Assembly: GCA_001724265.1 (NCBI GenBank)
Contig: MEDY01000004.1
Location: 186,001 to 250,000 of the forward strand
Reading direction: 5' to 3'
Source: Rhizaria sp. SCN 62-66
Taxonomy: Eukaryota
DNA length: 64,000 bases
The notes beneath the pieces are model-generated. The model was not told the DNA's origin. It saw nothing but the letters and a program-made list of their open reading frames with translations, and searched no databases. The first letter of the stretch is position 1. Each line of letters starts with the position of its first letter. This document shows positions 10,923 through 62,100 of the stretch, piece after piece. Position numbers and translations under genes: made by a program.

Positions 10923-13900
10923 ATGTCCTATCATCCCGCCAACCGCGGTCCGTCCCCTCAGGCGGCCCCACGTGACGGCCTCTCGGCGTCCTACGGCCCT
11001 GCGCAGCACCATGATGCCCCACGCCGCCCCGCTAGCCACTACGACCCTGCGCCTGCAGCCGCCTCAGAGCCCTACGTCGGCCGCGGCGCTGCCAACGGCC
11101 ACAACAATCAAGTTGCCGGCCCCGCTGCCGCTGCTGCGCACGGCTACGGTCACGGCGGCTCCGGCCAGCAGCGACCCGCACCGGGCCCCCGCGGCCCCGC
11201 CGTGCCCGCGCCCGTGCGCGGCCCGCAGCCGCAGCAGTACGCGCCCGAGCCCGACGGGGCGAGCTCAGCTTACGGCTCATATGGCACTTCCGGGTCCTAC
11301 GGGAACGCTGGCGCCCCCCGTGGCCGCTCGCACCAACCCCAGGGCAACGCCGACTACGACTACGGCTACGACCAGCAGTACCCGCCCCAGCCGCCGCCGC
11401 CGCAGCAGCAGCAGCAGCAGCAGCAGGGCTACGGCGGCAATGCTGGTTACGCGCCCCGCAGCGGCGGTGACGACCACGGCTTCCGGCAGTACGGCGGCAG
11501 CAACCGCGCACAGCCACACTACCAGCCGTCGCTGTCGCAGCAGCCGCTGTCGCAGCAGCCCGGCGGCCACCATAGCGGTTTCGCCCACGAGCGGCCCCAG
11601 CAGCAGCGGCCGCCGTCGCAGCAACGGCCTCCCTCCCAGGGCCGCGCGCCCTCAGCATCAGCCGCCACAGGCTCTAGTTCTGGTTCTAGCGCGCCGATGC
11701 GGCCGCCATGGCTGGAGCGCGGACAGGCGCCGCCGCCGCGCACGCGCACGCGCGAGATGCTCGCCTACTCGCGGTCCTCGCTGCTGCAGCAGCCGCGCGA
11801 GTACGGACTGGGCGAGGCGCGGCCGGCGCCCGCTGCGGGCGAGCTGGCGGCCGTGCTGCGCGTGGAGCGCGAACAGGCCGAGCACTTCCGCCCGCGCGAC
11901 GAGCGCGTGGCTGAGTGGTCGCGGCACCTGCGCGGCGGCGGGCTGGGCGGCATTGCAGTCACGGCCTCGGCCGCCGTCGCGCCGCCGCTGCTGGCTGAGC
12001 CTGGGGCCGTGCGGACGCGGCGGCCGAGTTTACCGCGCAGCGGCAAGCCCCTGCCGTCGCAGCAACAGCAACAGCAGCCGCAGCACCATCAGCAGGTGAG
12101 GGCTGACAGTCGTCCGCGCCAGCAGCAGCAGCAGCAGCAGTTTCAGCAGCAGTTTCAGCAGCCCCAGCAACAATATGACAGTGACCCGCGCAACGACCCT
12201 CGGTACAACAACGGCCAATTCTCGCAGCAGCAACACCAGCAGGGGCGTTCGCAGCAGCTTTATGCCCAGGGCCCGCCTCCGCAGCAGCAGCAGCCGTATC
12301 CGCCTCAGCAGCAGTACCAACGGCCACCACAGCAACAACAGCAGCAGTACCAGCCTGAATACGAGCACCCGTCTCAGCAGGCTCAGCCCCGTCGCTCGCC
12401 TCAGTCTCAGCCTCAGCCTCAGCAGCGCCCTCGCGCCCCTGTCCAGCCCCAGTCCCAGGCCCCCGCGCCCGCGCCTGTGCCCGCGCCTGCGCGCGCGTCC
12501 GCGACCGCGTCTTTGACCGCCGCTGCGCCGAGCCGTTTGGCCGCCCCGCTGGCCGTGAACCGCCCCTCTGCCGACTACGACGACGACGATGACGACGACG
12601 ACGACGACGACGGGGAGTTTTACGATGCGCACGGCCCCGCGCCCGCCGCGGCGCCCGCGCCGGCCTTTGTGCCCACGCTGGCACTCGACCGGGTTAAGGT
12701 GCCACCTGTGTCGCCCGTCAAGAGGAGCGAGAAGAGCCACGGCCACGGCCACGGTCACGGTCACGGCCACGGTCCGAGTCAGAAGCCGGCTGGCGCAGTG
12801 AACAGTGGCGGCGGCGGTGGTGGTGGTGGTGGTATGAGCGATGACGAGATTCCGCCGCCACCGCCGCCGCCCGACACGCCACCGTCGCGCGGCCGCGCGC
12901 GCACGGCGGCGCCGCACGGGCAGCCCGCTCACGACCCCCACGGCCACCTGCTGCAGCGGCCGCAGCAGCAGCAACATCAGCAGCAGCAGAGCCAGCAGCC
13001 CGCGGACACGTGGTCCCCCAGCCAGGCCCCGCCTCCGCCGCCGCCGCAGCCGTACGCACAGCCACCGTACGCGCCCCAGTCCCAGCAGCACCAGCCGCAA
13101 GGCTACGGCCCTCAGGGCCAGTCGACTCTGGTGCGCCGGACGTCGCGCGAGCTGTACGCCGCTGCCGCCGCTCTACGCGAGCGCTCCCGCTCCCGCGACG
13201 CGCACGGCGACGGCTACGACGCCTATGATGGCGTGTACAACGACAACGCGTATGACCGCGACCGGGAGCGCGACTACTACGACCGTGAGCGGGAGCGCCA
13301 GCTCGGCGGCTACGGCGCCCACGGTCACGCCCACGGCCACGGCCACGCGCAGGGTCACGCGCAGGGGCGCAACGTCACCGGCTCCCCCTCTGCCCCCGCG
13401 CCCGCGCCCATGAGCGCCAGTGCGAGTGCAAGTGCGGGCGCGGGCGTGGGCGTGGCGCCGCTGCGCGACACGACGACGTTCGCGACGACGCGGGATGAGA
13501 TCGCCCGCGCCCGCTCGCGCGCGCAGGCCGCGACGCGCGAGGCGCTCGCCGAGCCCGTGCCCGGCCGCGCGGGCGCCAACAGCGCCACGGCTGCGGGGGT
13601 GAGTGCGAGTGGGGGGTACCACCAGCCGGGGTACGCGCAGCGCAGCACGGCGCGGTCGCCGGCGCGGCCCGCGAAGCTGCCGCCGATGGTCTTCTCCAAG
13701 GCCAACTACGCGCGCCCGCTGCCGCCCGCCGTGATCGCGGCCGCGCTGAACCTTGGCGGCACCGCGGCCAGGACGCGGTCCGCCTCGCGCGGGGCCTCGC
13801 AGACGCGCAACAGCAGCAGCTACAGTGAGGAGTACCCGCGCTATGACGACGGTTATGGCAACGGGTATGATAACGGGTACGATAACTGTGGGCGCATGCC

Positions 13901-16900
13901 TGAGCCCGCATACCCTGAGCCCGCATACGCAGAGCCCGAGCCCGAGCCCGAGCCTGCGTCCACTGAGCCTGAGGCTGAGGCCGCGGTCGACGAGGCTGAG
14001 GCCGAGGCCGAGGCCGGCGTGGACACGGCTCTGGAGGGCGACGCCATTGACGAGGGCGATGTGGTCGCAGAGGGTGACGCCGTCGCCGAGGGCGACGCCT
14101 ACGCTCTCGGAGTCGAGGGCGACGCTGCGGCCGTGGAGGGCGACATTGCGGCCCTCGAGGGCGATTTCGCGCACGAGGGCGACGTTGTTGTCGCGGCTGA
14201 GGAGGAGGTCGGCACCATCGACGCCGATGACAACGCTGACAACGCCGACAACGCTAGCGCCAGTGTCGATGCCGACGCCGCCGAGGCCGCTGTCGCCGCC
14301 GCTGCCGCCGCAGTCGCCGCCGCAGTCGCCGCCGCCGACGCCGCCGCCGAGGCCGAAGCCGCCGCCGAGGCCGAGGCCACCGCTCAGGCCAAAGCCAAGG
14401 TGGAGGCTGAGGCGGTGGCGCAGCCCGCTGCGCCGGCGGCGGCGGCGTCACTGGAGGGCGAGTTGGTGCACGTGCTGTCGCAGCTGGCCTCGCTGCTGGC
14501 GCGCGCCGACGCCGCCGCGACCGCGGACCCCGCCGCCGCGGCCGTGGGGCAGCGCGTCGCCGCCGCGCTCGGCGCCATTGTCGTGCCGCGCGCGTCCGCC
14601 GCGACCAGCAGCGACGCCACTTCTGCCGCCGCTCCCGCTCCCGCTGCGGCCGAGGCTGCGGCTGCGCCCGTGAAGGCGAGCCCCGCGGTCAGCCGTGCCC
14701 CGAGCACGAGCGCTGCCGACGCTGAGGCCGAGAAGGCTCAGACTGAGGCCGCCGCTGACACCAAGGCCGGCGATGACGCTGAGCTCGAGCCTGAGGCTGG
14801 TGCCAATGATGCCGCCGCCGGTGCCGCTGCTGATGCTGATGCTGATGCTGAGGCCGGTCCTCTCGCGGGCGTAACGGTCTCGACCACGCTGCTGCCGCCG
14901 CTGCCGCCGCTGCCGCCGATGCCCACCGTCGCCGTCACGGTCGACGTCACGGCCGGCGCCCGCCGCCACCACAGCTACAGCAACAGCAACAGCAACCGCA
15001 ACGGCGACGGCGACGGCGACGGCGACGGGGACCAAGGTGAAAACCCCGGTCGCGGCGACGGCCACGGCGAAGACCACGACGACAGCGCGTTCCCCAGCGC
15101 CGCCGTGACCCCCGCGCTGGCCCCGCTGTTGCCCTACGCGCGCCCCACCCCCGTCCCAGCACCCGCGCCTGCACCTGTGTCTGTCTCAGTCTCGGGCTCG
15201 GCCAACGCCGCGGATGCTGACGCTGCGGCGGGTGAGTCGACGTCGGTGTCGCTGATGCCATGCCCGGCGACCGCGGAGCCTATGGAGGCTGTCCAGCCTA
15301 CGGTCACTGCGGTCACTGTCACCGACGACGCGGCTGCTCCTGGCGCTGACGCTCCAATTGCTGACGGCGACATCGAGGCCCAGATCGCTGCCGCAGAGGT
15401 TGAGGCCGCAGCCAAGGCCGCCGCGGATGCCGAGGCCGAGCTGGACATCTCGAGCGTGAAGCCGCTCTCGACCTCGGCCTCGCTCTCCGCCGCCATCTCA
15501 GAGGCCGGCGAGCCCCACATGCAGATCCTCACATAGGCGCCCCCGCTCATCGACGGGCTCACGGCTGCTGAGACTGACACTGCGGGGGGTCTGGAGACGC
15601 CCGCGGAGGCGACGCACGGCGCGCCGCTGACGCCGCCGCCGCGCGCGCCGCACTCGCGGCACCGCAGCTTCACGACGCCGCCCACGGCCGAGGCCACGGC
15701 GGCGCCCTCCCCCGCGCCCTCCGACCCGGCCCCCGCGGACAGTGCGGCTGCTGCTGCGGCGGAGAGGCCTGCGGTGGTGTTCCGCCTGACCGAGGGCGGC
15801 GCGGCGCACGCGGCGGGGTCGACCGCGCCCGCGGCCGTGGCCGAGGCGACGGCGTTCCTGGACTCGTTCATCGCCGCCGCGCTGGCCGCGGGCGACGAGG
15901 CCACCGCGCAGGCCGAGGCTGCCGCCGCCGCCGCGCACGCGCACTACGCCCACAGTCACGGGGCCGGTGGGCCGGCTGACCCGGCGGAGGGACTGGTGCG
16001 CACGCGGGCCGACATGATGTCGCGCATCGCGGCCCACATGGACCACTCGAGCGCCGCGCAGCACGCCACCAGCGGCAACGGCAACGGCGGCGCTGTGGTG
16101 GTGCAGCTGCCGTCGCCGATCAAGGCCAGCGCGGTGGCCGGCGTCGGCGCGAGTCCCAACGCCAGCGCCGCGCGTGCCACCGCCGCTGCCGCCGCCGCCG
16201 CCGCCGCCGCCGCGAATAACCCGAGCTCTGCTGACCCCCATAGTCACGTCCATAGTGACGGTCACGGCGACGGGCACGCTCACCCCGACCGGGGGCTGAG
16301 CCAGTCGGAGGCGGCAGCGCTGGCGCTGGCGGCGCACACTGGCGAGGGCACGCTGTCGCGCGCGCTGCTGGTGCACACGTTCGTGACGTCGGCGGGCAGT
16401 GGGCCCGACGAGGACATGCAGCGGCTCGCGGAGCTGCCCAGCTCTGACGACAGCGACGAGGACGAGGACGAGGATGAGGACCGGGGTGAGAGCGACGGCG
16501 ATGGCGAGGACGGTGCGCGCGACGGGTGGGGCAAGAGCTACGGCACTAAAATTCCCCGCCGGAAGCGCATCGCCGCCAAGCACTCCCACTCTGATGACCA
16601 TGACAGCCACAGCCACAGTCAGAGTCAGAGTGACGGTGAGAGTGACGGTGTGTATGATGTTGACTACGAGGGCCGTGGCCACGAGGCTGGAGGGGAGCTA
16701 GGCAACTGGGACGACTACGTGAACGACATCAACGCCGTTGACGACATCAATGACGCTGCGGACAACGCCACTGCGCACGCCGCCGCCGCTGACAACATCA
16801 ATAGCAACAGCAAGTCTGACGCCGAAGCCGCTGCTGCCGCCAGTGCGCAGCCCCGTGAGCACGCTCAACCCGAGTCAAACGCCACCACACAGGCTGCCGC

Positions 16901-17684
16901 CACCGAGACTGCTACTGAGGCAGCAGAGAGCGCTGCGGCGGAGAGAGCTGAGGCGGAGGAGAGCGACGACACCGAGGTCGAGGAGGAGGTCGTGCTCGAG
17001 GTCACCGTCGCGCCTGACGCGAGCTCCACCGCCAACGCCAATACGAACCCTGTCTCTGCCTCTGTGATTGAGCCCGCGCCCACGCCCGTGCCCAGCGCGG
17101 CCCCCGCGGCGTCTGAGCGGGCGGCGACCGTGGCCGACGGGGCCGAAGTCACCTTCGCGGTCGACCACTCGCACGCAGAGCACGCGCCGCCGCGAGCAGA
17201 GCCCGCGCCCGACGCGGCGGCAGCCAGCTCTGGCGCTAAGGTTGATGGCGGTGCTGAGGCGAAGGCTGTCGCCAATGCCGAGTCCGAGGCTGACGCCGGT
17301 AAGGCGGACGCCGACAACTCGGACGACAGCGTGGACCTCAGCGACCCAGACGCGTGGGACGAGAGCCTGGGCGACCTGTCGGCCATTGCCATCGCGCCCG
17401 CTGCTGCCGCCGCCACAGCGAGTGACCACGCGGGTGCCGCCAAGGCGGGCCCGGCCAGCGGGTCGAACCGCGCGTCCGCCGTGACTGCGGCGGCGCACAA
17501 GCCGCCCAACACTGCGCACGCCGCGCCGGCTGTGGCTGCAGCTGCGGGGGCGGGTTCTGACAAGCCGCCGCAGCAGCAGTTGCAGCAACAGCAGCAGCCC
17601 GTACAGCGGGGCCCGGTGCAGCTGGAGCAGGACGACGGCGGCGACCTGAGCGACTTCTCGATCGGCTCGCTTGACCTTGAGTAA
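10923..17684 (+). CDS. Uncharacterised ~2250-aa low-complexity (Q/P/A/D/H-rich), probably disordered protein; internal TAG at 15534-15536
   Basis: ORF-track pieces 10869-15536 and 15774-17684 are in the same frame, separated by one TAG and 79 open codons of identical GC-rich coding style. The AT-rich UTR begins only after the TAA at 17682-17684. Confidence 0.75.
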
Positions 17685-18098: not shown

Positions 18099-21000
18099 AT
18101 GCCAGGCCAACTCATGTTTAACATATTCGGCTACGGTAGCTCTGCTTCAGCTCCAGCTGCAGTGTCACCTGACGAGGCTGAGTTGCTGAAGCGCCTGCCG
18201 CCGCCCCCGTCGGCGCTTCCCGACGAACACACCCCAACCTCACACCCTGAGCAGTCGCAGGCACAGTCGCGTGCACCTGCCACGCTTTCGCAGCACGCGA
18301 CTCTGGATCCCGACCACTCGTTAGCAGGTTACTTTGACCTTGCGCCCGCGCCCCCGCTGCCCGACAGCTTCGAGTTCTCCGTCTCGCGCTCCACCAACAC
18401 GTACGGCAGCTCCAGCTACAACTCGAGCTTCATCATCAACAACAATACCAGCACGTACTCGGCGCTAACCGGCTCTGATGCTGCGACGATTACTACGCCT
18501 GGTAACTCGCTTAGCGCCGCGCAGTCCGCACCTGGTCCGCCCCCGCCGCCGCCCGCACACACGCATACGTACAGCCACGCTACCCGCGGCAGCCACCACG
18601 GCTTCGGTGCTGACGGCGACGCAGATGGCCCCCGCGTCATCACGGACTCGGGCGAGTTCCCCCCGGACGCCGCCGCCGCCGCTGAGGAGGCCGCGGCCGC
18701 GATGCTGGGCGTGTTCGACTACGCACCCCCCGAGGCCCTGCAGTCCTTCACCGCAATGGCCCTGGCATCCGCCTCGGCCTCGCATTCACAGTCTCACTCT
18801 GGCTCTGGGGCTAGCTCTGCAGCGAGCTCAGGCGCTGTGTCCGCCGCGTCCTCCGGCTCCGTGCCGCCCGCGCACGCTGCCCACGGTTACTTTGCTGCCG
18901 GCCCCGGTCACGGCCAGCATGGGCGCAACACGCTCAACGCCCACGCCGCGGCCGCAGCAGCTCACGCCGCGGCCGCCGCCGCCGCCGCGACCGCGCTGGC
19001 GGACCCCAGCTCGGTGCTCTCATCCTTCTCGGGCTACCCGCACGACGTGCACGGCCACGGCCACGGTCACGGCTCCAGCGGGTTGAGCGGCGCTGACTCC
19101 ATCGTCACTGGCTCCGACTCAGGCTCTGGCGGCGCTGGCGCTGGCGCGGGGCTGGGCGCGGCGTGGCGCGCGGGCACACAGCTCGACTCGGCGACGCGGC
19201 TCTCGTACTCGTCGCTCTGGGAGTGGGGCAAGGCGGCCAACGCGCACGTCTTCGCGCCCTCCCCGCACGCAGCAGCGTCACGAGACGTCGCGGCAGCTGC
19301 TGCGACGGCGATGGACCCCACAAGCGCGGGCGCGGTGACGGTGCCGCTGCCGCTGGCGGGGCCCGCGCGCGCGCCTGGCGCCGGGCAGCTCATCTCGCCC
19401 TCCGTTGCAGTCTCCAGCGCAAGCTCCACCTCAGGCTCCGGCTCGACCGGTTCCGTCGCCGGCGCCGCTGCGGCTGCGGGCAGGGGCGAGGCGCCGGCGC
19501 TGGCGCGCGCGCGCGGCGCCGGGTGCTCCGCGGCGACGGCCAAGGCGCTGGCGCAGACGATCCTGGCCTACGCAGATGCGTGCCGGCCGACAGGCACATC
19601 GAGAGCCCACAATGCAGACGGTGACGCGAGCTTCGCTGCCGACAGAGCCACTTACAGCGACGCTACCGCCGCCGGGCCGCCGTCACCGCCGCCGCAGGTG
19701 ACGGTGGTTGAGTTTGGCGGCGGCGTGGGCAGGCTTGCCTTCCTCGTCCTCACCGCGCTTGTCGACGCCGGCGCGCTCACACTGCCGCAGCCAGCCGCCG
19801 CCCCCATCGCCCCGAGCGCAGCGTCCGCCGAGTCGGTGTGCTCGGCGGCGTCCGCGGCGGCCGTGCCCCGCGCCGCGGTGCGGTACGTGCTGTGCGAGAC
19901 GGATGCTGCGCTGCTCGCACACGCGCGGCGGCACCCGTCGCTCGCTCCCTTCATCGCAGCGGGCGCGCTCGACTTCGCGCTGGCGGACCCCGAGGACGCG
20001 GACGCGCTCCACCTGCTTGAGGCCAACGAGGTCGTTGTGCGCCCGCGGCCCGGAGCGTGCGGCCACTACGCCAGCGCAGGGGCGGCGGGCGCGGGCGCGG
20101 GCGCCGGCGTGGACGCGAGCTTCGTGGCGCTGGGCGGGGGGCTCGACGACGCGACGCTGCGCGACGCCTTCGCCGTCACCGCGGCCGCCGCGGCCATGGC
20201 CGCCACGCTCGCGCCCGCGGGCTTCGGCGCATACCGCGTGCCCGCCGACCCCGCGGCGGCCGCGGCGCGCGCCGGCGTCTCTTTATCGCTGTTGCCGCCC
20301 CAGTCCGCGGCGCCGGACTCGAACGGCGGTAGCGGTGGGAGCAGCGCTGCTGCGGCGGCGCCGCCCACTGCCGACGGGTGGCGGTCGCCCCGCAAGCGCA
20401 ACCCCAACGGCTCCGCGGGCGGGCGGCTCTCTACGCCCGCCAGCCCCGTCGCTAAGCCCAGTCCGAGTGCGAGTCTCAACAGCGTTGCGGCCCAGGAGAG
20501 CGCGGTGCTGAGTGCGGCCGCCGCTGTTGCCGGCGCTTACGCGTACTCGCTGACGCCGCACCAGCCACGCGTGACCACGTTCCCGGGCCCCGTCGTCGCG
20601 CTTGCAAACAACTTGCTTTCGGCGTTGCGCCACGACGCGTTCACCCTGGTCCGAGCGCCGCTCGATAGCAATACGAACAATCTTAACGCTTCTATTGCGA
20701 AGATTGCGGCTGCTGCTGCGGACCCGGTACCCGCGCCCCCGGACTTTGCCCTATCTCTGCTCGAGTGCTCTGTTAGTCTGTGGACCGCGTCCGCGTCCGC
20801 CGCCGCCGCTGCCGCTGCCGCGGCCGAGGACTCGGCGCTGCTCTCGTGCTCGCGGCTCCACTGGGACCTGCGCACCGTCGCCTCAATCCCCGTCACGCGC
20901 GCGCGCCTGCTCGCGTCGGTGCCCAGCGGCGCCGCAGTCGGTGTGGCGGCCGCGACGGCTGCCGCAGCAGCGTCGGCGCTGCTGGCGGGCCCGGCCGCGC

Positions 21001-23033: not shown

Positions 23034-23335
23034 AGGCCTAACAGCAATTGCAAACCGTTATATTAGAACTTTTGATTGAAATGTCTGGCGCGCTACAGTT
23101 ATTGTACCGACAGATGCACTAAGTACTCATCATAACAAACAATACACACACTATTTTCTATTCGATGTGGTTAACATGAGTTGAATTGCGATGACTATTG
23201 TATTATTCCTATTATTTAAACGATGAACAATGATATGAGAGATATATGTTTTCACGACTCACGATGCTGCTATAGTAGTTCCTGATGTGTTCTTCTTTGC
23301 TTGCTCTGTACATTTGCTTAAACTTTACTTGTGCT

Positions 23336-31600: not shown

Positions 31601-34600
31601 GGACCACACAGCGCCGCCGTCGCCCTCTCCGCGACCACGGCGCTGCCGCGCTGCCGCCGCGCTCGCGAGAGCGGGGTTGTTTGCGGTGCGCGCACGGTGG
31701 TTGAGCGCGGCGACAAGGTTCGCGTAGTCTGCGCGGCCACCGCGGCGAATAAACGCCATGGCGGACGCCAGCGACTTGGTGTCCTTGTCGTCCGCGCCTG
31801 CACCTGTCACAGTGCCGCCATTTGCTGTGACGGTGCCAGCGGCAGTAGCAGTGCGCGGGCCAAGACGAGGGTCGTCGGACATCGTCATGTAGTACCCTAC
31901 TGTCGTGGCTGCACGCGCAGACTGCTGTTGTTGCTGCTGAGCACGCTGGCGCTGGGTCATTGGGCGCTGCACCTGCTGTTGTTGCTGTTGACCGTCATCA
32001 CGTGCAGCAGCCAGCAGGGATCGCGCGGCTGCCTGTGCGCGCGCGTGCCCACCAGTGATACTGTAGTCGTCTTCATCATCCTCGTCGTCATCGTCGTCGT
32101 CGAAGCGACTGCCAGGCGGAGGTAGGGGAAACGGGTCCGCACCGGCGCTCACAGTTGCAGCCGGAAGGTCCAGCGTCTCAAACTAGTCGTCCTCGTCTTC
32201 GCTGCCACCCTCCGCCTCTGTATCGCGAGCGTCAGCAGTTGCACGAGTGGTCGCAGCAGCGTTTGCGGCAGCGGCAGCGTCCGCAGTAGCAGCGGCAGAC
32301 GCTTCGCGTGCGGCCGTGGCAGCGCCCCGACGTACACCGGGGCCGAGGAACCACAGGTTGTTCGTGCCCACGGCGTCGCGGAAGGCCTGTGTAAACGCTG
32401 CGCGCGCGGGCGCACGCGGCTGCACACTACTAACAGAAACGCTCGCGTTCGGGCCACCGGTGATGGCAGCGACGGGCTGGGCCATCGACGACGTCAGGGT
32501 GCCGCGCGGACCGAAGCCGCCGTATGCGCCAGTGCCCACGCGGGGCACAATGTGGCGCCCGCTAGTATTCGAGGTAGACTCACGCTTGTTACGCGTTGAC
32601 GCCGCATCACCATGGGCACTCTTGTCGTCGATGTAGTCATACTCTTCGTCGTCGCAGTCTTCATCACTGTAGTCGCCGTCGTAGTCGTCGTAGTCGTCCT
32701 CTTCGTCACCGTCGCCGTCACCGTCGCCGCGGTCGCTGGCGCGCACGGGCCCGACGCCCAGCGCGCGCATCAGTTCGCGCACGCGTCCGTCTGCGGCTCC
32801 GCGTGCGCGCCGCCGCCTGCGCTCGGCGCCCGCCTTGCGCACGGCCTTCATGCGCGCCGCAACCTCCGGCGGACGGTGCCAGAGCCGGGACGCGGCTTCG
32901 GCGGGCGCGGGCCCAACCTCCACGGCCGGGTCCTCGGCCATCTGCGCGATCACGCGCGCGCGCATCGCCCCGTTGGCGAGCAGCCGCAGCAGCTCCTCCT
33001 TAAGCGCGGCTGCGGAGCGCAGGCGACTGGCGACCTGGTCCGTGACCGCGACGCGGTCGAGCCGGCGCGCGCGGCGCTCGAAGGCGAGCTGCAGCGACCG
33101 CAGACAGGCCTGGATGGCGGCCAAGAACCAGCCGCGCAGCGCGACGCGGTGCGGCCCGCGCAGGCGCGCCGCGAGCGGGTCGCCGCCGTCGTCGGCTCCC
33201 AGCCTCTCGCTCGCACCCGCGCTGCCGCTGCCGGCCGAGCCGGATGCGGTGGGGGGCGTGCCGCCGCCGCGCGCGGACACCGAGCCCGGCGCGCCGGATG
33301 TGGCGGAGCCGCTGAGCCCACGCGCGCGCCGGGCGGCCTCGGCAGAGCCGGCGCGCGATGAGGGCCGGGCTGGGACGCCGCCACGCGCAGTGTCGGACTC
33401 TGAGTTATTGTTAGTAGTCGCGCTGGAGACAGCGGCAGCGGGCAGAGAGGGGGCAAAGCTTGCCGTTTGGCCGGGGCCGGCGGTGGTGTGAACCTGCGGC
33501 AGCGAGCTGAGCGCGGCCGGGCGTGCGCCGGGGCCGGTGTGGCTGGTGTAGTTGGGCTCGGCCCGCGCAGTCGCAGTTGCCGCAGTAGTCGCAGTCGTCG
33601 CCGCAGCATTCCCACCCGCTGCCGCAGCCGCTGCTGCCGCCCGCGCGGCGGCTGCGGCGGGAAGCGCGAGGTGCCTGGCGGCGCGACCACGCTTGATCTC
33701 GAGCCAGCTGGGCGCGTCCTCGGGCTCCGCGGCGGAGAAGTCGTGGAACACGCGCGCCGCCGCCGGGTCGCGGCACAGCGCGCGGTGCAGCGCGCCCAGG
33801 GAAGGAAAGCCCAGCAGGTGCAACCAGAAGGCGGCCGCCGCGGCGGGCGACCGCGGGACCGCGCTGGGGTCCAGACTGGGCACCGCGGCAGAGGCGCCTG
33901 CGACGGCGGAGGCGGTGACAGCGCTCGACGCGGGGGCCGCTCCTCCAGTGCCGGCGCGCGCTTGCGTCGCACGCTGCTGCTGTTGGGCCTGTTGCTGTGC
34001 GTACGCGCCGCCGCCCAGCGCCGCAACAGCGGTGCCCGTGGCATTGCGGGCTAACGCGCCGGCGACGTTCTGCGGGCCGAAGGCCGACACGCGCGGCGGG
34101 GCCGCTGACAGCGCCGCCGCGGCTGCCGCGGAGGGCAGCAGCCCGCGCGAGGGCGCTTGCGCAGCCCCGTGGTCGCCCGCGCCCTCGTACACGTTCCCTG
34201 TCGCGGGGTTGCTCGCGCTGGTAAAGTTGGGCGGAGGGCACAGCGCCGTGGCAAGGTTCTCGCGCGTGAGCCGCAGCCCCGCGACCGAGGGCGCGGCCGT
34301 GCGGCTGCGCGCCAGCAGGTCCAGCTCCAGCGCGGCCGCGGGCGGCAGCGGGCCCGACCCGGCGGCTGCCGCGGAGGCCACGGCGGCGGCGCGGCGGCGC
34401 GCGGCCGAATGAGCGCGCTCAAGCGAGGCGGCGGCGGCGGAGGCGGCAAGCAGCGCGTCGGAGCGGCGCACCTGTTCATGCGTCTGTGCGCGCAGGGCGT
34501 CCAGCCGTGCGGCGGACGAGAACGCGTCGCTGGACCCAATGCCGCCGTTCGAGGCCGCCGCAGATGACGCGCCCGCAGAGTCACCACTTGTCCCAGAGCC

Positions 34601-35975: not shown

Positions 35976-38900
35976 ATGGCAGACCACGCGGCGCCGATCG
36001 CGCCGCCTATGGTGTCTTAGCTTAGTGACGCGCTGTCATAGGGATAGGCACGCGCGCGTGTGCAGCTGCTGTCGTCGCTGTATCCTCGCCTTTACTCAGA
36101 CCCGACATCCTGGTCCTCCATCTCGACGCATTCACCCGTTTCAGGCTTGCTACCGGCGGCTTTAAGTGGGTCATTAGTTGCAGGCGAGGCTTACGGGCTT
36201 GTGCACGCACCAAACTCCAAGTTGTACGCTGCTGGAGCAGTGTCTGCCGCGTCGTGTGCAGAGCGTGTTCAAGTGCCACCGCTCACTGGCAGCCTCCTGG
36301 CGCTGCCGACAACGGCGCTCACCCTTATCCTCCAGCTACTGACGCCACGCGAGCGCGCACGTTTGTCGACCGCAAGTCGCAGCGCGTATGCGTCGCTTGG
36401 CCCAATGGTTCGCAGTGCAGACGCTGCGGGCTATGACTTGCTCGTGAATGCTGCTCCAACGATGCGCGCCGCCGATTACGTTTACACGCCGGTCATTTCC
36501 CACGCTCCTGTCGCTAGCAACCACGCCACTGCAAGTGCGCGTTTTGGTTCCATTCCGACTCGGCCGCGCCCTCAGTTTGCATCGCAGGCCTTTGCTTGCG
36601 CCGCTGGTCTATTGCAGCAACCACTACAGCCAGTATTGTCGACGGATCAGACATCGAACGACACGCAAACTAATCGTGTACCGATGTCTGGTGGCGTATA
36701 TCCACGGCACATTGACCTTTCTTTGCCACCACTGCCACCACTGCCGCCGCTATCGCCGCTGTCGTCAACGGTGCCCTGCGCCAACGGCCCGATGCTTGGC
36801 GCGACGGCCGCTGCGCACTGCCCCACAGCGCATCTGCACTGGCTGGCCCGGTCGCTGGCCGAGCGCGCTGCCGCTGCTGACAGCACTCTGTCGGCCACTC
36901 GAGGTGGTGCGCCGAGTCGGTTTGAGCCCGAGAGCATTGCCACTGCCGGGGCTGGTTTCCCCTCTCTAGCTGCTATTGCCTCGAGTGTGACCACCTCTTG
37001 CGCGAACATGCCGACGTGTTCTGGGCGTGCGACTCTTGCAACGAAGACGTGCAGCGCTGCGTTTGACGACGGCGAGGTGAGCAGTGCTGAATGTGATGCG
37101 GACAGTGAGAGCGGAGACGACTCCGAGTCGGACACAAGAGACAATGATGACACGGATGAGTGCGACCCAGAGCCATATCCTTATGCGTTTTCATGCGGTA
37201 AACGCACCGCAAATAGCAAGGCATCAGAGACTACATCTTCGAGTCATAACGTTGGCACGCTTTATCATGCAGCGCAAAATCCTGCTCACAACGCAACGAA
37301 TACTGAGGGTGTGTACGACTGGCATCGGCACGAGGCACAGCGACGCACCGCACTTTCGAAACTCCAGCAGCTTTGCTTTGCAATGCTCTTGTCAGTTCTT
37401 GAACACCACGATACAATCGAGACCCATCTTGTGCAGTCATCGAAAATGACACATGATGCGCAAACCGCCATGATTCGTACTCTCACTTTGCCCAATACCT
37501 CAGAGGATGCCACCATCCCCGTGCGCTTTAGTGGTTGGTCAACGTTGCAGTCGCTAACGTTAACAGGCTTACCTCTTGCATTGACGGAACCTGCGTTAGC
37601 CCGCGTGCGGTTGGCTGGTGGCGAGTATCTGCGTGTGCTCTTGTTGTCCGCAGCCCAAGTCACCACCGCTGCGCTCACTTCTCTGCAGTTACCTCGACTT
37701 GTGGCACTGGACCTGGCCCGTGCGCGTCTTGTACAGTCACAGCCTGCTGATGGCGACGCACTATCATCCGTGCTCTCACACGCGCCGAGGCTCCGCGCAT
37801 TTGCAGCGCCACCGCAACTGTCGCTGCCTTCTGCACTTACTCGCCTCGGCGTTTCGGTTAATGACGCTTATTTTGGGCGCGCTGGAGGCGGCCTACAGCT
37901 TTTGCGTGCACTGTCGCTAACCGGTGCACGCATTTCTGAGCCGGACCTTGTATCGCTGCTGACGCACTCGACACTAGGACGGTTTCGTGCCAATCCACCA
38001 GAACGGCTTTGGTTGCGCTTGTCTGAGCAAGGTGAAAATGCCGCCACTGCAGCGACACGTCCAGCGACCGCGCGTGAGCGTCGAATGTTGCGGCGTGCTC
38101 TCACCGCACGGTTCCCCCGTCGCGAAGTGCGTCTTGACTTTCTTCCACTCAGCGAGACAAGCATCCGCGCTTTGGTGCTGCCGCCATTACCGCCTGCATC
38201 ACATCTTGCAGCGGACTGCGCGCCACCCACGCTTGCAGCGATAAACAGTGCGAACGCGGCTGCGGAGGCCTCGCACATCTCTGCCCCGGCACTGCTTGGC
38301 CTTTGGCCTGCACCTCCGCTGACAGCTGCCCCCGCGGCCGCTCCTCACAGTGATACACATCCGCCGGTGCGACTTTCGCAGCCGCGCTCTGATGTGTTTT
38401 GTGGCTTGACGACGATTTCTCTGCAAGGCGCGCGTGCCTTGGGCGACCTTGACGTTGCGCTGGTTCTCCGTGCGTGCCCTCGACTTGAATCGCTGACAGT
38501 TACTGCGGCGCGCACGTTGGGGGACCGCGCCTTTGATTGGCTTGCACTTGCTCGTCTTGCAGAAGCCTTGCCTTTGCCAGGTTGCTCGCGTGGTCCCACC
38601 GCAGCGGACTGGTTTGGAAACACCGTAGATGCCGCATCGACTCTTGCATGGGTTCGTCGCCGCGGCGACCAGGCTGCGCGACTGCCGGCTCCGGCGCCCG
38701 CGGAGGCTGCTGCTGGCGCGGTCGTGAGTGCGTGGTGCGCACCGCTGTTTTCTACCCCAGCGCGACTTCGTACCCTTACCGTCACCGGGCAAGCGGGTGT
38801 CACGCTTGCAGGTGCGACCGCGATGCTGGCAGCAGCACCAGCGCTTCAGTCTCTCGATCTCACGGTTGCAGCTCCCACTGCGGCAGTGGAGAGTGCACTT

Positions 38901-40931
38901 GAGCTGGGCAACTATCTTGCTGCTCGTGCGCGCTCTGCCCTCATGTGCGCTACCACAGTACTGCTCGCTGCAGCTGTTGCTGTTGATCCCAGTGCAATCG
39001 TCGTTACAGAACCAATGTCGCCGGTTGCAAGCGAAGAACCTCACTACGATCCAGATAGTGACGATGAGTCCTCTGATGATGCCTCCGCATCATACCAGCC
39101 CTGGAGGCTGGACGTACCTGTCGCGCGCGCCTCTGTGAAAGCTTTTCCGCGGCCCGTTGTTCACAGGGAGCTGCACCCCATCTCCCTTGCGCGCCGTTCT
39201 CGTGCGGTCAACACCACAATTCGGGCGCCTACAGTTGCCCTTGAGGAAGAGGAGGATGATGATGGAGCTCGCGCACGCTCTGCGATGCTGATGCCAGCAC
39301 CTGGCCGTCCTCTTCCTGCTGTATTTCGCATACCTGATCTCACGGCGCCACCTCCTCAGATCAGAGAACGTGCTCGGTCGGCAACGCCTGCAGTGGCGCG
39401 TAGCAAGATGCGCGAAACTGACGCGAGCGCGTTGTCAGAAGAACCATTTGCAGCACCCACAATGTCGCTTAGTACGGCTCTGGAGGCGACAGGTCTAGAT
39501 GCGTTGATTACAAGCGCATTTAGCTCAACTATGTCCTTGTCCCATGCTTGCGAGACTGTTGCGACTGTGCGCGGGCTTATGGCTTCACTGCCACAGCTTG
39601 AACGTCTGTCGCTTGCAGTGTCCGCGACAGCTGTTGGTGATTCTGTGTCTGGACGCATCATCTCTGCATTCGTTCGGTACTTAGAGCCAATTGCTGCAAG
39701 CGAGCTTTGCTCAACTGTCGCCCGAGCTATCGCTTTCTGTTCGTAGTGTGCCCCTGCAGCTGGTGTCGTGGGGCTCGCAGATACCACGCCCACCAGTTGT
39801 GCATGGTGTAACACTCCAGTGGCTCTTGCAGAGATTGACGCCATGTCTTTGTTACGCAAGGCACCGGTGCGCGGACAGTTGCAGGCCTTGCTTGTCACGT
39901 TAGCCAAGTTCTCTGATACCAACACGCGTGTTGCTGTACCGGCAAAACTTGCACACGCTTTTTCCCCGATGCCCAAGCTTAACGAGCTTTTGATTGCAGA
40001 GCCCATCTCCACTGGTGCGCAACAAACACCACCCGCACCTGCTTTCGCTGCATCTGCATTTGCTCTTCAGCACACATGCATTGTGAGCGATAACAATACG
40101 GCGACTTTGCGAGTCAGTCCGCTTGCTTTGCTATTGTCTGTGTCATCACTCCGGTCATTAGTCTTGAGTGGTCCATCCTTGCCTGCAGGTGCGCTGGCCG
40201 CTGCTGCTCGCACACTTCCTCTTCTGCACCACCCCACTGTGCCTTTGCAGAGTCTCTCACTGGCCCACCAGTCGCACGTGACGGATTCAGATCTCGCGGC
40301 CCTGCTGCCATGCCTACCGTCGCTGCGCTCCTTGCACGTTCCTCACGCGCGGACTTTGTCCGACGGTTTTCTGTCCATGTGGGCTGAAGGTAACGACACG
40401 GGCGCGCACGTGGGCTCTTGGCCATGCGTGCAGAGCTTGGATGTGTCTGCGACAGCAGTGACAGACAAAGGCATATTGCGGCTGCTCGGTGGTCCGGCTC
40501 CGCTGCGTCGGCCTGCAAGTGCAATGGCTGCATGGTTATGTGCACACCCAGTGACCCCCGTTGCGGCAACAGCGCTTGAGTCATTGCGCGCCGCGGGCTG
40601 CGCGGTATCAGACTCACTACTGCGCTCGATTGCCGCACGCTGCCCGCGTCTCGTGCTGTTAGACGTCTCACGATCGCTCGTCACTTTTGATGGTCTCTCT
40701 ACGCTTCTACCACCAAAGTCTTTAATTGCACCGATGAGTGGCACATTACCTGAGAGAGGTTCAGAGCACGTTACTACAGTGTCGGTACCTGTGCTTAGCG
40801 CCCCGCGAGAGGTAATTGCGCGCGGCGTAGCGCGAGGTGTCAACGGCGGTAGGGATCTGGCACGACTTGCAGAGGGGTATGCCGGGACTACGACGCTCAT
40901 TTACGAGGACATCAACGAAATGGGAATGTGA
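35976..40931 (+). CDS. F-box / leucine-rich-repeat (FBXL-like) protein, ~1650 aa; internal TAGs at 36018, 36039, 36045 and 39744
   Basis: ATG 35976 (MADHAAPIAPPMVS*LSDALS*G*ARARVQLL) is in frame with ORFs 36060-39746 and 39768-40931. F-box-like LLALPTTALTLILQLLTPRERARLSTASR. LRRs occur on both sides of the 39744 TAG (ACPRLESLTV; LQSLSLAHQSHVTDSDL; RCPRLVLLDVSRSLVT); ends in TGA. Confidence 0.75.
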
Positions 40932-41230
40932 TGGATGATCGGTGAAACGTTCACTGCAAGTATCCTTCAAACCATTATTTCTTTAATCCACTTTAGTACT
41001 TACCTAGACTGAAACTACATACGTAGTAAACTTCCAGATAAAATCAATACACATACACGATGTTTTGCGATTACCTGCTTCTCAATTGACGATGTATTGT
41101 TGGTCTGTGTATGATGAAAATATTAACCGAGTCTAAGTAGTTGCTGTGATTATATAAATTTGATTACGACGCTGTAACGTCCGATACCTCACTTGCAGTA
41201 ACGTTTACAGTCGTCCCATTATGGTTGCAT

Positions 41231-44200
41231 TTACTCGCTGCCGCAGCAGTCACTGGGCTGCTCCCAGCCGCCCGCGCGCGCCATCTCCGCCTCCGCCAGC
41301 AGCAGCGCACGCTTGCGTTCCCAGTAGACCACAGCACGTGTACACGCGTACTCGAGGTACCCAAACCGTCCGGTGCCGTCATCGCTTGACGTGCCTTCGT
41401 CATCAGCGTTGTCACTGCTGTTGTTGTTGTTTGCACCGAAGAGCGTGACGCCCCAGAAGACCCACTGCAGGTGCCCTGCAAGCTGCGCCCACGCTGCCTC
41501 GTACAGGAGCCGCGCAGGTGCCAGGGAGCGAACTGCACGCGCACGCTCGCGCCGAAGACGCCGCTTCCAAGGCCGCACGCCCGCGGCGGCCGCGCCAGAG
41601 TCCGCGGTGGCAACTGCCGAGGGGGACACTGCGCCAATCGTGTCGTCATCGTCCTTCTCGACGCTAGCGTCAGCGTCGGTGTCGGCGCCAGCGCTTTCGT
41701 CTCCGCTGCACTAAGACCCTGTACCGCCACTGCTACCGTGAGCGGCGCGATCGCGCTTGTTGCCGTACACCGCAGCCGCTGTGGCGGCGGCGCCAGTGGC
41801 CATGCCGTGCGCGTAGCACTGCGCGAAGGCGTGCTCCTGAGCGGTGAAGCAGTCGGGCGACAGTTGGGCCAGCAGCGTGCGCCATGACTGCAGACTGCGC
41901 GGCGCGCTGGGATGGAGCGGGCTCCACTCTGCGTTGGCGTCGCAGTCGTCCGTAGAGTCGGACAAGGTGTCGGCACGGGACTGCGGGATGACCTCAAGCA
42001 TCTGCGTCGCGGCGGCAAAGTCGAGGTAGAACCCCGGATACGCGCCGGCATAGGCCATCGTGCGCTCACCGATAGAGTTGGTGATGTCGAAGGCGCGATA
42101 GTTGGGACCGGAGTACTCGAAGTCGATCACTGTGTACGCTGCGGACTCTGCAGCCGCAGCCCTTACAAGACTAGCAATGGTCGTGTGTTCACTGTCGTTC
42201 ACAGTCTTAGCATTCTTGCCGCTGAGTTTACTCTTGCATTGCTTGTGCTTCTCATCGTCGACCATCACGTTGCCGCTATGTAGGTCGTTGTGGCAAAAGA
42301 CCGTGGGCACCCTGAGCGCGTGCAGACGCCGCAGCACCCACGCGGCCTCGCGCCGCAGCGCGGGCAGGTCGATAAACCGCAGTAGCGCTGCCGCGGCCGC
42401 GCGCGAGGGTACTGGGCTGCGCGGGCCCGCCGCGGCCGCCGAGTCGCTGTCGCGGACCGCTGCCGGCGGCATCGGGAGGAAATGCGTCCGCAAGTACGGC
42501 GCCACGGCAGGCGGTAGCGGCGCGGGCAGGAACGCCAGCGACGGGTCCGCGGCGATGTCGGCCGCGGAGCGCGTGGGCGGGGGCGCAAGGCGCATGCGGA
42601 CTTGCTGTCGTGCTTGCTGCTGCTGTTTATGCTCGGGTTGCGGAATGATTTCGTCGGACTTAGCGGGAGAGTAAGTGTACGTGTATATAGACGTGAGTGT
42701 AACAGTCAGCGCCGGCGATGCAGTAAGTACATGCGGCGGAGCAGTCGCGAGCGCAGCGGCGGCAGCGGAGGCCGCAAGCGCGTACCACGACGATAGGTAC
42801 TGCGCAAGTGATGTCGCGGGCGCGCCGGCGGGCCGTGGGACGGCGGCGGTAGACCGGTGGGGGTCGATGAGCTGCGGCGCGGAGTGCAGCAGGCGGGGGA
42901 CTACCTCTAGCGGCTACGCAAAAATAACATTGTTGAATAAGAAACATGAGAATAAGTCATACAGTGATCATATGCACCATACATGAGTGGATGAAGATAT
43001 TTGTAATGCTGACGTACAAGTGCGTGCATGCGGCCCATCGAGTAAGCCACCACGGCGATGACCGCTGGGACGTGCCACTCAGGAGCACGCAGTGTGCGGC
43101 CGCGGATGAACGACACAATACGACCGTTCAACGGTACACTATTGGGACTCGAGCTTGTACCCGGACTCGAGTTTGGAGTCACGTTCACGGTCACGATGGC
43201 AGACGCAGCAGGTTTGCCCGATGCGCGGCTGTCGGCAGAGAGAGTGAGCGATGTGGCTGGTTTATCTGCAGCGTCTACTTGCGCAGCACCGTTGAACGGG
43301 ACGAGCTTGGTTTCACCAGAGTTACCACTGCTGCTGCTGCTGCTACTGCTGCTGCTAACTGTGACAATTGAGTTCGCATTAACATTGCTAAAGCTAAGGT
43401 TCGCGTTGCTAACTGCGTTCGCGTGTGCGTTGTCGCTGCTCTTGCCGCTGACGCTGTCAGTGTTGCTGCTCAAGTCCGCAGCCTCGTCCGCGAACTCGTG
43501 GAATACAGTCTCGCCGAGCCCGAAGCGCGAGGCGAGTGCGACCATGGCCATCTCATGCCCGCGGTCAGTGAAGTCCGCCTGCCCGAACAGTCGCAGCACG
43601 CACTCGCCGGGCATCGCCCCTGCTGCGGACGCCGCCGCGGACTGCGCGGTCGCGGCTGAGGTCTGGGAGTCGCTTTGAGTCTCCATCTGGGTCAGATCGC
43701 ACTGGGAGGAGGTCACTGTGGGCTCAGTGGGGAAAGCGGCTGCAGGCAGAGTGAGCTTAAACATGCGGTTGGTTAGTCCGCCTGTGATGACGGAGACCGC
43801 GATGTCTTGCCAGACAGCCGCGGGGATCGACTGCGCGGGGCGGGGCGGGGCGGGGTAGAGCGACAAAGAGAAACGTAAAAAAAAGACAATATAGACAAGT
43901 TAAAACGTTACTGTTATGCATTCAATAGAAAGTACATAACAGAGAGATGACTGTTTCAATGCGGTTCGCGGTGACAAGCTCACGTACGTCCCAGCCCGTG
44001 ACCTTAGTGCGCGCGAGCTCGATCAGACGGATGAGATGCGCGTCCGAGACCAGCGCCGCCACGTCAGGCCCGCGCACGCGCTCCAGGTCCACCGCAAACT
44101 CCGGTGGCGCAAGGCGCGTGCCAGAACCGGGCGGGGACTGCTGCGAGCGCGAGACAGTGTTGTCGAAGTTGTAGGTGTCGGAGTGCACTGAGTGGGCGAG

Positions 44201-54339: not shown

Positions 54340-54370
<31 letters not shown>

Positions 54371-59175: not shown

Positions 59176-62100
59176 ATGTCGGTCGACAGCAAGTCCAGCG
59201 AGATGCTGGGCCTCTTCCTGGCGGACCTGCGCTCGCGCTCGCTCGAGACGCGTCTCGTCGTCGCTAAGGACCTGCGCCGCTACGTCGAAGAAGAGGCACG
59301 CACCAAGTCCGCCGAGAGTTTCACGCACTTCATGAACGATGTGAACCGCGTGGTGATGGACCTGGTCAACTCGCCCGACCTGAGCGAGAAGCTCGCCGGT
59401 GTCATGGTGCTTGACGAGCTCGTAGAGGTGCCCTACGAAGAGAACGAGACTAAGGTCATCCGCTTCGCAAACTATCTCCGCATGATTCTCTACGGCGACA
59501 GCATTAACACGCAATTGCTACTCGCTGCGGCGCGCGCATTTGGACACCTCGCGCGCGCTTCCGGTACTCTGGCGTCTGACGTTGTGCTGACAGAGGTGCG
59601 CCGCGCGATTGAGGCCCTGCGCATGGGCAAGGCTGACAAGTGGTTCACTGCGCTGCTTGTCACTCGCGAGCTGGCCGAGAACGCGCCCACGCTCTTTGCT
59701 CCGTACCTTGAGCCGTGCTTGGACGCGCTCTGGGGCCCGCTGCGCGACGCGCGCGAAGGCGTGCGCGGGCCCGCCGTCGACGTACTGCGCCTCACCATCG
59801 TGTTATCGTACAAGCGACCTGTCTCGCACCGCGTGCAGCTGTACACGCGCGTGTTCCACGAGATTCAGAACAGCCTCAAGACGTCCACGGTCGAGGCCGT
59901 GCACGGTGCGCTGGCGTCGCTGCACGTGCTGCTCGTCACCACCAACGACTTCATGACCCCGCGCTTCGACGAGGTTTGCCAGATGGTGTTTCGCTACCGC
60001 GACCACCGCGACAGGCTGGTCCGCGAAGCCGTTATTGAGCTGCTGCCCAAGGTTGCCTCGCTGTCACCGCCGGCCTTCACGAACCCCGTCACGGCGTACG
60101 CGCACCTGGCGCTCTCGCACCTCATCGCGGTCATCGGCAAAGGCGCGCCCGAGACGACACTTGCGGCGGCCTTCACCGCGCTTGGCGAGCTGGCACTGAT
60201 CGTGCAGTCGACGGTGCTGACCAAGCTCGACGTCATCGCTACGCTGCTCAAGGACGCACTCACAGCGCGCGCGCGCAGGCCCGCGATCGTGGCGCGCGTG
60301 CTCGACTGCGTGTCGATGCTTGCTCGCGCGCTGGGCCCCGCGCTGCTGCCGTACGTCGCCGACCTCATCGACCTCATGTTCGCGGACGGGCTCTCCGCGC
60401 CACTCGTCGCCGCGCTGACGAACCTCTCGCTGCACGTGCCGACCGTGCTCCCGCACGCGCAGCACCGCCTGCTCACCGCCATCGCACTCATTATCTCGCG
60501 CCGCTCGCACGGCGGCGTGCGCGGGCCCACAGCGCTGGGGCTCGGCGCCGCCATCGGTTTCGGCGGCCCCGGCGCCGGCGCCACGGACTCGTTGCTGGGT
60601 CTGGGAGACTTCGGCCGTCCCCCGGGCTCCGCGTCGCTGGCTCCGCAGTCGCCTGTCTCCGAGACCCCCGGCTCACCCACCGCGTCCGCGTCGTCGCTGC
60701 TCAGCGGTCTTACGGCGCGGCTCCGTGGCCAAACTACGACCGCCGGCCCTGCCGAGGGCGCGCGCTCGCTCTTCTCCACGCTCCACGCGGGTGGCGCTGA
60801 CCCTGTCGCCGCCGCGGCGGCTGCGGCGGCCGCAGCTGCGGCGGGCGGCTCTGGCGCGCAAACTGCCGGACAGGGCGCGGGCGGTGCCAGTGGCAGCTCT
60901 GGCGCTTCGGGCGCGGGTGTGGCCGGCGCGGGGCTGAGCGCGGCGGATAACGAGAGCCGTCTGATTTCGCTGACGATTCTGTCACTGCAGACGCTGGGCT
61001 CGTTCGACTTCGACGCGCACAACCTACTGCCGTTCGTGTACGAGGACGTCGTCGGCTATCTCAGCCACGATGTACCCATGGTGCGCAAGTGCGCCGCCGT
61101 GTGCTGCGTCAACATCTTGCTCCGCCCGCCCAAGTCTGTGTCGCAGTCGCGGCTCGACCTGCTGCAGCGCCAGCAGGCACAGATGTCTGCTGAGATCCAC
61201 GCCCTCGAGGCGCGGCTGCAGCAGCAACAACAGCAGCAGCAACAACTCGACAGTATCATCAATGCTGGCCCCGCGACTGGAGCCCCGACTTCAACTCAGA
61301 ACGACGGCGCTCAGGCGCGGCTGTTGCACGTGCGACCCAGTGCCCTGCAAGCCACTCTCACGGCCTCCGTGTCGAGCTCCAGCTCCAGTTCCAGCACCGC
61401 TGCTGCATCCGGTCCGCTTTCGACCGCAATGCCGCGCCAGCGTCGCGCGGGCATCCTGGGCTCTGCCTCGGCCACGGGCTCCGCGCTGAGCTCCATCGCA
61501 GGCCCGGCCGGTGCGACTCTCGGCGACGGCGCACAGTCTCCTCTTTCCGGACTGCCCTCGGTCGACTCGATTGCGGCGACCGCTGCGGCCGGCAGTATGA
61601 CGCTGCGCCCGTTCGCGCTGCCCTCGGCGCTGGGCTCGCCGCTCAGTCCCAACGGCAGCAGCAGCGGCGGAAACAGCATCGCACAGAGCCTCGACGGTCT
61701 GCCGACTGCGCGCGGGACCGGGCCGGCGCTGCGCGCCCCTCGCTCGATGCAGCGACTGACACACTCGCGCCTCGCCGCCGCTGCCGCTGCCCTCACCGCT
61801 TCAAGCTCCTCCGCGGCCAATGGCGCGACTGGCGGTAGCAGCAACGCATCAGCTGCCGAGGCCGCGGCCGCCGCGAGCGCTGCCTCCACTGGCGCACTTG
61901 AGCCCGTTGTCGCGTCCGCGCCCGTGTCGCTGCTCGCGTCGTCCACCTCGGGCGCCGTGGTCTACCCCAAGGGTTGGCTCGCAATGATGGAGGCCGTCCT
62001 ATAGCGCCTCGTCGCGACCGCGGTGGCGGACCCCGATCCCGCGATCCGCCTCGTTATCCTGCGGCTCTTCGCGCGCGACTTTGATCCTTACCTGCTGCAG

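Follow-up and report, generated by a model that had tools for sequence, protein, structure and literature searches.

Can a nuclear genome read UAG as an amino acid while UAA and UGA go on terminating translation? The question is raised by 64 kb of eukaryotic nuclear DNA (hereafter the window), a piece of metagenome contig MEDY01000004.1 (positions 186,001 to 250,000 of the forward strand), in which an earlier prediction, made from the letters alone, placed eight in-frame TAG triplets in five genes. One of these genes encodes the TOR kinase. We consider it fairly probable that UAG is translated as an amino acid in this organism, an uncultured microbial eukaryote of wastewater with a GC-rich genome, and that only UAA and UGA terminate. 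Such a code is the best explanation of five observations taken together: the homology of TOR that runs through a TAG, a coding signal that continues in the same frame in five genes, the absence of TAG from 13 gene ends, a drop in GC content that follows true stops only, and the reproducibility of the triplets in other DNA assemblies. Largely on these grounds the core of the original prediction, TAG as a sense codon with TAA and TGA as stops, is upheld as probable. Its argument from exclusivity, that TAG alone occurs inside genes, proves weak, and three of its eight sites are doubtful.

All eight triplets are present at the positions and on the strands originally given. They lie in the following genes.

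15534..15536, plus strand: TAG at codon 1538 of the 2253-codon low-complexity orphan at 10923-17684 (plus strand), which holds this one TAG and ends in TAA (17682)
32183..32185, minus strand: TAG at codon 1084 of the 3261-codon low-complexity orphan at 35434-25649 (minus strand), which holds this one TAG and ends in TAA (25651, minus strand)
36018..36047, plus strand: cluster of three TAGs (36018, 36039 and 36045) at the 5' end of the model of an F-box/LRR-like gene
39744..39746, plus strand: TAG at codon 1257 of the same F-box/LRR-like gene, 35976 (or later)-40931 (plus strand), 1651 codons with four TAGs in the model, ending in TGA (40929)
41711..41713, minus strand: TAG at codon 295 in the last exon of a choline/ethanolamine kinase gene (exons at about 44527-43943, 43857-43018 and 42913-41231, minus strand; ends in TAA at 41233, minus strand); with TAG read as X the last open reading frame (ORF) is 41231-42595 (minus strand), 454 residues with one TAG
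62002..62004, plus strand: TAG at codon 943 of more than 1608 in the TOR kinase gene, which runs from 59176 to beyond 64000 (plus strand), with 1608 residues within the window (59176-63999+) and one TAG

The TAG triplet of the TOR kinase gene

The TAG at 62002 sits in a conserved HEAT block of TOR. A phmmer search aligned residues 936-1107 of the translation with residues 650-824 of human mTOR at 78 bits, gap-free across the TAG, which was read as X and falls opposite a serine. Homology to human mTOR picks up again at residues 1254-1317, and the Pfam domain mTOR_dom is matched downstream of the TAG at residues 1273-1373 (E 1.4e-12). The codon scores of the 50 codons on each side are 0.39 and 0.33, both in frame 0. 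Given that the homology passes through the TAG without a gap, the triplet is exonic and must be passed if TOR is to be made.

The column that the TAG occupies is filled in all 23 TOR sequences of a MAFFT alignment (six Glu, five Ser, three Thr, two each of Asp, Gln, Asn and Gly, and one Ala). With residues 930-1110 of the protein as the query, exhaustive searching by HMMER returned 738 proteins at E <= 0.001, and the best 150 served to describe the column further. It is filled in 142 of these 150, with 46 Glu, 16 Ser, 15 Gln, nine Asp, nine Lys, eight His, seven Thr, seven Arg, six each of Gly, Asn and Ala, three Val, three Leu and one Tyr. Since the column is occupied and is flanked by conserved residues on both sides, no intron could take out this TAG without the loss of conserved residues. 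An in-frame TAG within a conserved gene, with homology continuing beyond it, is thus found in TOR; the TAG of the choline kinase is followed only by a weak motif.

Coding signal and gene ends

When TAG is read as X, adjoining ORFs merge into five long single frames. An open frame past a TAG is by itself uninformative, because long open stretches are common in the non-coding frames of GC-rich DNA: a stop scan of all six frames found well over 200 stops in the window with 50 or more open codons on either side. A test of codon usage is therefore needed, and since a scan of GC content at third codon positions around all stops was too noisy, codon-usage scoring was used instead. A model trained on nine TAG-free genes placed frame 0 best in 99% of the 50-codon windows of those genes (mean score 0.34, sd 0.15). 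The same model placed frame 0 best in 12 of 12 such windows flanking six of the TAGs. When the tested gene was left out of the training, frame 0 came out ahead of the other five frames on either side of the TAG in five of five genes.

The five triplets at 15534, 32185, 39744, 41713 and 62002 behave alike in other respects. The GC content after them is 0.59-0.79, there is no further stop within the next 100 codons, and the coding signal or homology is intact for 160 to 2177 codons beyond them. That these five are truly in frame is well supported. The prediction had the frame and the coding-type sequence continuing at all eight TAGs; on codon usage and GC content this stands for the five, and for 36018, 36039 and 36045 it is doubtful.

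Individual sites differ in the strength of the signal. In the orphan at 10923-17684 frame 0 scores 0.22 upstream and 0.32 downstream of TAG 15534 with the gene left out of training; a further 715 codons are open, and the GC content is 0.69 before the triplet and 0.79 after it. On either side of TAG 32185 frame 0 scores highest, and 2177 more codons are open. The scores on the two sides of TAG 41713 are 0.31 and 0.27, in frame 0. At TAG 39744 frame 0 is again best on both sides, with a weak score, and 394 more codons are open. The F-box/LRR-like gene has atypical codon usage and a GC content of about 0.59, lower than that of its neighbours. Its 50-codon windows score from -0.16 to -0.01, and in the test with the gene left out of training it scores -0.02 to -0.05, as against 0.18-0.32 in the others, and with such low scores throughout a gene of unusual codon choice its sites are the weakest in the codon test. 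Pfam found nothing in the two pieces of the gene that flank TAG 39744 (38400-39743 and 39747-40928), and a comparison with the other F-box gene in the window, in which the residue opposite the TAGs was sought, gave no similarity.

The ends of genes are consistent with the same code. As predicted, the 13 gene ends in the window comprise nine TAA, four TGA and no TAG (12 were established by a test of GC content and following stops, and the thirteenth is that of RPS14). At the 12 tested ends the GC content, 0.60-0.77 before the stop, has dropped to 0.33-0.49 within the following 150 nt, and only 1-76 codons separate the stop from the next one in frame. A drop of this kind follows true gene ends only, never the five solid TAGs. 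The claim that no TAA or TGA is internal to a gene was also borne out: 17,664 internal codons, from 17 exon pieces of 15 genes, hold five TAGs, no TAA and no TGA, where the first 24 codons of the model starting at 35976, with their three TAGs, were left out. The sample of stop usage is small, at 15 genes. TAA is the commonest terminator (nine of 13) despite coding regions of about 70% GC, and the 3' flanks are abruptly of 33-49% GC.

Weighing UAG as a sense codon

Several observations speak against a reassigned UAG; those that bear on the code in general are given in this paragraph, and the others stand below beside the alternative that each would favour. Within the 64-kb window ARAGORN found no tRNA gene, there was no Rfam match and there is no eRF1 gene. 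The TOR site is the only one that can be aligned and its column is variable, so that it is not diagnostic of the residue inserted. In the choline kinase the Choline_kinase domain of Pfam lies upstream of the TAG (E 1.2e-17), the TAG itself is within a low-complexity insert, and the C-terminal motif that follows it (residues 407-431, with 11 identities in 25 to chain 3feg_A) falls short of significance by itself. UAG is also rare, with five occurrences in 17,664 codons or 0.28 per 1000.

We propose that a tRNA with the anticodon CUA would decode UAG and leave UAA untouched, and that eRF1 would no longer recognise UAG efficiently. Which residue is inserted can be judged from one TOR column and from what is general in such codes, where Gln is the most frequent residue in known reassignments. 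The column is polar, with Glu (32%) and Gln (11%) common, Leu (2%) and Tyr (0.7%) rare and Trp absent. We lean towards Gln, which may have about an even chance, with a smaller though appreciable chance for Glu and a slight one for any other residue.

The alternative that survives best is that termination at UAG is leaky and no tRNA is dedicated to it. UAG would be poorly seen by eRF1, read by near-cognate tRNAs and tolerated at unconstrained positions, as an ambiguous intermediate. The rarity of UAG favours this, and so does its distribution: it is confined to weakly constrained positions, namely the low-complexity orphan proteins, the insert of the kinase and a variable surface column of TOR, and RPS14, spermidine synthase, NAMPT and ALG6/8 are free of it. 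If UAG still terminated, however, some genes would be expected to end in it, and no TAG is found among the 13 ends; moreover TOR, an essential single-chain protein, would suffer a reduced yield. We regard leaky termination as improbable, although it and full reassignment are not separated by sequence alone. With UAG taken as a sense codon, its low usage at weakly constrained positions fits a young or inefficiently decoded codon.

It is possible, but on balance unlikely, that the organism is a deep-branching and unsampled eukaryote whose very GC-rich genome has only begun to capture UAG, or is in an ambiguous phase of that capture, with the codon already gone from the terminators and yet, at 0.28 per 1000, still rare and confined to unconstrained positions. 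Were this so, the genome would offer a natural snapshot of how UAG and UAA come to be uncoupled when AT pressure is absent, and the code would have arisen independently, outside the ciliates, fornicates and rhizarians.

Under the standard code the TAGs could instead be real nonsense mutations and the five genes pseudogenes, that is decaying or redundant copies. Here the exclusivity of TAG loses most of its force, since at the observed codon frequencies TAG would result from 65-68% of single-base nonsense changes made at random, and five out of five is unsurprising (P ~0.13). The positions concerned are unconserved, and with only 64 kb in view an intact copy of TOR could lie elsewhere. Decay would nevertheless have touched five of 15 genes and left no frameshift or other stop in the 17,664 codons, and the coding signal and homology stay intact over the full distances downstream that are given above. 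The same TAGs recur in separate assemblies, that at 39744 also in a 2025 run of another study, and again no gene end is TAG. We think this explanation very improbable.

A further possibility is that the message loses its TAGs, spliced out with in-frame introns or altered by RNA editing, and that the code is the standard one. Spliceosomal introns do occur in the genome, against what a first look suggested. That of the kinase (42914-43017, minus strand) has 104 nt and a GC content of 0.34, and that of RPS14 (10132-10288, plus strand) 157 nt and a GC content of 0.54; both start with GTACGT and end with AG. In the gene for a GTPase ten codons precede a comparable intron (about 25035-25075, minus strand) with the 5' site GTACGT. 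The short introns sit in very GC-rich genes, and the long low-complexity genes are apparently intron-free.

Three places invite such a reading. A perfect GTACGT stands in frame 150 nt upstream of TAG 32185 and delimits a 153-nt candidate intron that ends at the TAG. Its GC content of 0.69, unlike that of the AT-rich kinase intron, and its frame-0 coding score make an intron here less likely. The sequence before TAG 39744 resembles a 3' splice site; the corresponding intron, GTACTT...TAG, would be 70 nt long by a hand count and was rejected because splicing out this length would put the long frame behind it out of phase. Near the start of the F-box/LRR-like model a 36-nt GT..AG candidate spans the cluster of TAGs at 36018-36047. 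The three triplets of this cluster lie within ten codons, 14 codons after the proposed ATG at 35976, and against an overall rate of 0.28 per 1000 they are unlike an ordinary rare sense codon. The cluster may lie in a 5' untranslated region, a small intron or an upstream exon. The first in-frame ATG past it is at 36405. A weak F-box match (E 0.009, below the Pfam cut-off) at about 36294-36389 precedes that ATG, a hint that the start of translation is on the 5' side of the cluster.

RNA is also to be considered. The polyA RNA contigs listed for one run (X5) map on genes of the window and lie off all TAG sites, which leaves splicing or editing at the sites other than TOR with some room; a stretch on which no contig is listed carries no weight either way. 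The contig alignments of the runs compared contain no splice joint; the joints that did appear had sides of 20-27 letters at repeats and were taken as spurious. On the other hand the TAG of TOR is an aligned column between conserved residues, and the candidate introns at solid TAGs have a GC content of 0.58-0.69 and a frame-0 coding signal, as against the 0.34 and 0.54 of the measured introns. To our knowledge there is little precedent for U-to-C editing of nuclear mRNA. That the TAGs are lost from the message seems to us highly unlikely.

Errors of assembly or sequencing, which would show as other bases at the TAG sites, could also have created the TAGs. The concern is a real one, for the window comes from a metagenome assembly, and three (X1-X3) of the 12 runs in which its DNA is found may be the source samples, in which case their agreement is not independent. 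In the Logan re-assembly of X1, which is one of these, a contig of 22,564 nt at depth 32 equals 22501-31159 plus 31241-42500 and carries six TAGs over 19.9 kb without a difference. A 1,962-nt contig from X4, a 2025 run of another study, covers 39578-41539 and bridges TAG 39744, also without a difference. A second contig of the European Nucleotide Archive (ENA), of 72,135 bp, has an ORF that ends at the same residue as that at TAG 32185, and its ALG6/8 differs from that of the window by a deletion of one residue. The 1083-residue ORF ending at TAG 32185 is on record from both ENA and Logan. Across four runs 12 variant positions are listed, none of them on a TAG. The comparison of runs covered one 20-kb stretch with six TAGs and left aside the runs with small shares of the DNA (X7-X12); the TOR site, 20.3 kb from the nearest other site, is outside it. 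In these assemblies, then, no other base appears at the TAG sites examined (six in X1, 39744 in X4 and 32185 in the second ENA contig), and the eight sites share no common sequence motif. With the triplets reproduced by separate assemblies, artefact is scarcely credible.

Three further schemes were rejected. In programmed readthrough, likewise, the ribosome passes a UAG and the protein continues. The prediction had argued from varied 3' contexts against it, and these are indeed different at all eight sites (GCG, TTT, CTT, GGA, GCA, TGT, TGC and CGC); they are unlike known readthrough motifs, the TAGs lie in mid-protein and not near the C-terminus, five unrelated genes in 64 kb would be involved, and no gene end is TAG. 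A code in which UAA and UAG both specify Gln (of the type of NCBI table 6) conflicts with TAA, which ends nine of the 13 genes with a fall in GC content and further stops behind it and never occurs internally. Recoding akin to that for pyrrolysine or selenocysteine fits neither the unconserved sites nor their lack of a common context, and we know of no eukaryotic precedent for it at TAG.

Related codes, gene content and occurrence

With UAG as a sense codon, the organism is probably a further case of a known but rare type of code. In the fornicate Iotanema spirale UAG specifies Gln and UAA and UGA are stops; the published account gives 204 UAGs in 126 genes, 22 of 28 hyperconserved UAG sites as Gln, and terminators in the ratio 104 UAA : 15 UGA (PMC5304391). 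As there, UAG in the window is internal and never a terminator, with UAA predominant and UGA minor (9 : 4). The window differs in being very GC-rich and in having five, or at most eight, UAGs in 15 genes, a scarcity that again tells against reassignment. Iotanema shows no evidence of kinship with the window organism.

The rhizarian exLh (Sainouroidea), which dwells in an insect, is described in the same article as using UAG for Leu, with UAA and UGA as stops, 384 UAGs in 71 genes, and few UAGs in highly expressed genes (PMC5304391). The window has the same division between UAG and UAA, and likewise no UAG in its RPS14 or metabolic enzymes. In contrast to exLh, Leu fits the TOR column poorly (three of 142 TOR sequences) and the window organism comes from wastewater, not from an insect. 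That article also treats NCBI table 15, named after Blepharisma, as an error (PMC5304391), and Blepharisma is accordingly not counted here among the precedents.

Reassignment of UAG alone has further been described in phyllopharyngean ciliates (Leu or Gln, with UAA kept as a stop), in Protocruzia and in the green alga Scotinosphaera, where UAG specifies Ser. According to that description such changes have been repeated and independent, UAA is the preferred stop, and suppressor tRNA(CUA) genes are present in two metagenome-assembled genomes (MAGs; PMC11687900). Decoding by a CUA tRNA is the mechanism we propose for the window organism. UAG is widespread in those ciliates and the green alga, unlike here, and the GC-rich window with its long genes and its mixture of TAA and TGA stops is not ciliate-like. 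Amoeboaphelidium protococcarum (Aphelida), cited as reading TAG and TAA both as Gln (PMC6299283, PMC5304391, PMC11687900), resembles the window organism as a non-ciliate microbial eukaryote with TAG as sense, but its code must differ since TAA is the main terminator in the window (nine of 13).

Searches of the literature, supplementary files aside, gave no report of a GC-rich, non-ciliate eukaryote from wastewater with a UAG-only code. Nuclear codes that split UAG from UAA are few, and each case tests the idea that the two are coupled by wobble and eRF1. A GC-rich and non-ciliate case with very low use of UAG would bear on whether reassignment begins with codon capture or with an ambiguous intermediate. 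The matter has a practical side as well. Gene callers that assume the standard code cut the genes of this organism at TAG, which makes the proteomes of such MAGs, and the estimates of their completeness, wrong; a public collection stores 1083 residues of the 3261-codon gene as a protein of their own.

The affinities of the organism were sought mainly with TOR. Among 1.84 billion representative proteins its relatives are at most 40% identical. A word search with region 1-460 gave 19 TOR sequences, the best of them 40% identical; searches with regions 880-1400 and 860-1400 gave three hits and one hit, low-complexity words having crowded out the relatives. The named matches are mixed and include a EukProt entry labelled Rmarinus, chytrids, the streptophyte alga Chlorokybus and animals. 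The TOR protein had no match in the metagenome contig or genome contig collections scanned, and a scan of metagenome contigs with a four-sequence TOR alignment returned 30 loci, all at most 37% identical. The neighbours of ALG6/8 in the Atlas are oomycete, diatom and basidiomycete clusters, and RPS14 scores similarly against animal, plant and fungal ribosomes. With chytrid fungi among the best named TOR matches, an affinity to Holomycota is possible.

DNA of the window also occurs in wastewater, bioreactor, activated-sludge and fuel-cell runs of 2015-2025 (12 runs from eight studies), and the organism is recurrent in engineered water systems. Three runs of 2015-2017 contain 99-100% of the sampled words of the TOR stretch, and runs of other studies from 2023-2025 contain it in part. 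A public protein collection places proteins of the window on a 206,822-bp contig of ENA, and the second ENA contig mentioned above belongs to a near-identical strain.

The GC content is 0.50-0.77 per 2 kb across the window. The genes other than those with TAGs are listed below; the whole set includes two F-box-like proteins and three very long low-complexity orphans.

NAMPT (Pfam): ends in TAA at 8131
RPS14 (uS11; Pfam): ends in TAA at 10354, with the plus-strand intron at 10132-10288
18099-23033: long orphan without a Pfam family, 1644 codons, ends in TAA (23031)
23336-24994, minus strand: eEF1A-like GTPase (GTP_EFTU, E 1.5e-44) with a Lys/Ala-rich N-terminal extension, ends in TAA at 23338 (minus strand)
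ALG6/8 glucosyltransferase (Pfam): ends in TGA at 45475 (minus strand)
zf-DNL (DNL zinc-finger) protein (Pfam): ends in TGA at 49677
isochorismatase/EF-hand protein (Pfam): ends in TGA at 49975 (minus strand)
bZIP protein (Pfam): ends in TAA at 55913
spermidine synthase (Pfam): ends in TAA at 57030 (minus strand)

By its motifs the GTPase looks HBS1-like and not eRF3-like, where Pfam says eEF1A-like only. An HBS1-like GTPase is a factor of translation surveillance and is uninformative on the choice of stop codons. No Pfam family was matched by the orphans at 10923-17684, 18099-23033 and 25649-35434. The first and last of these consist mostly of runs of Ala, Gln, Pro, Asp and Gly, together with His-Gly or Asp-Gly repeats.

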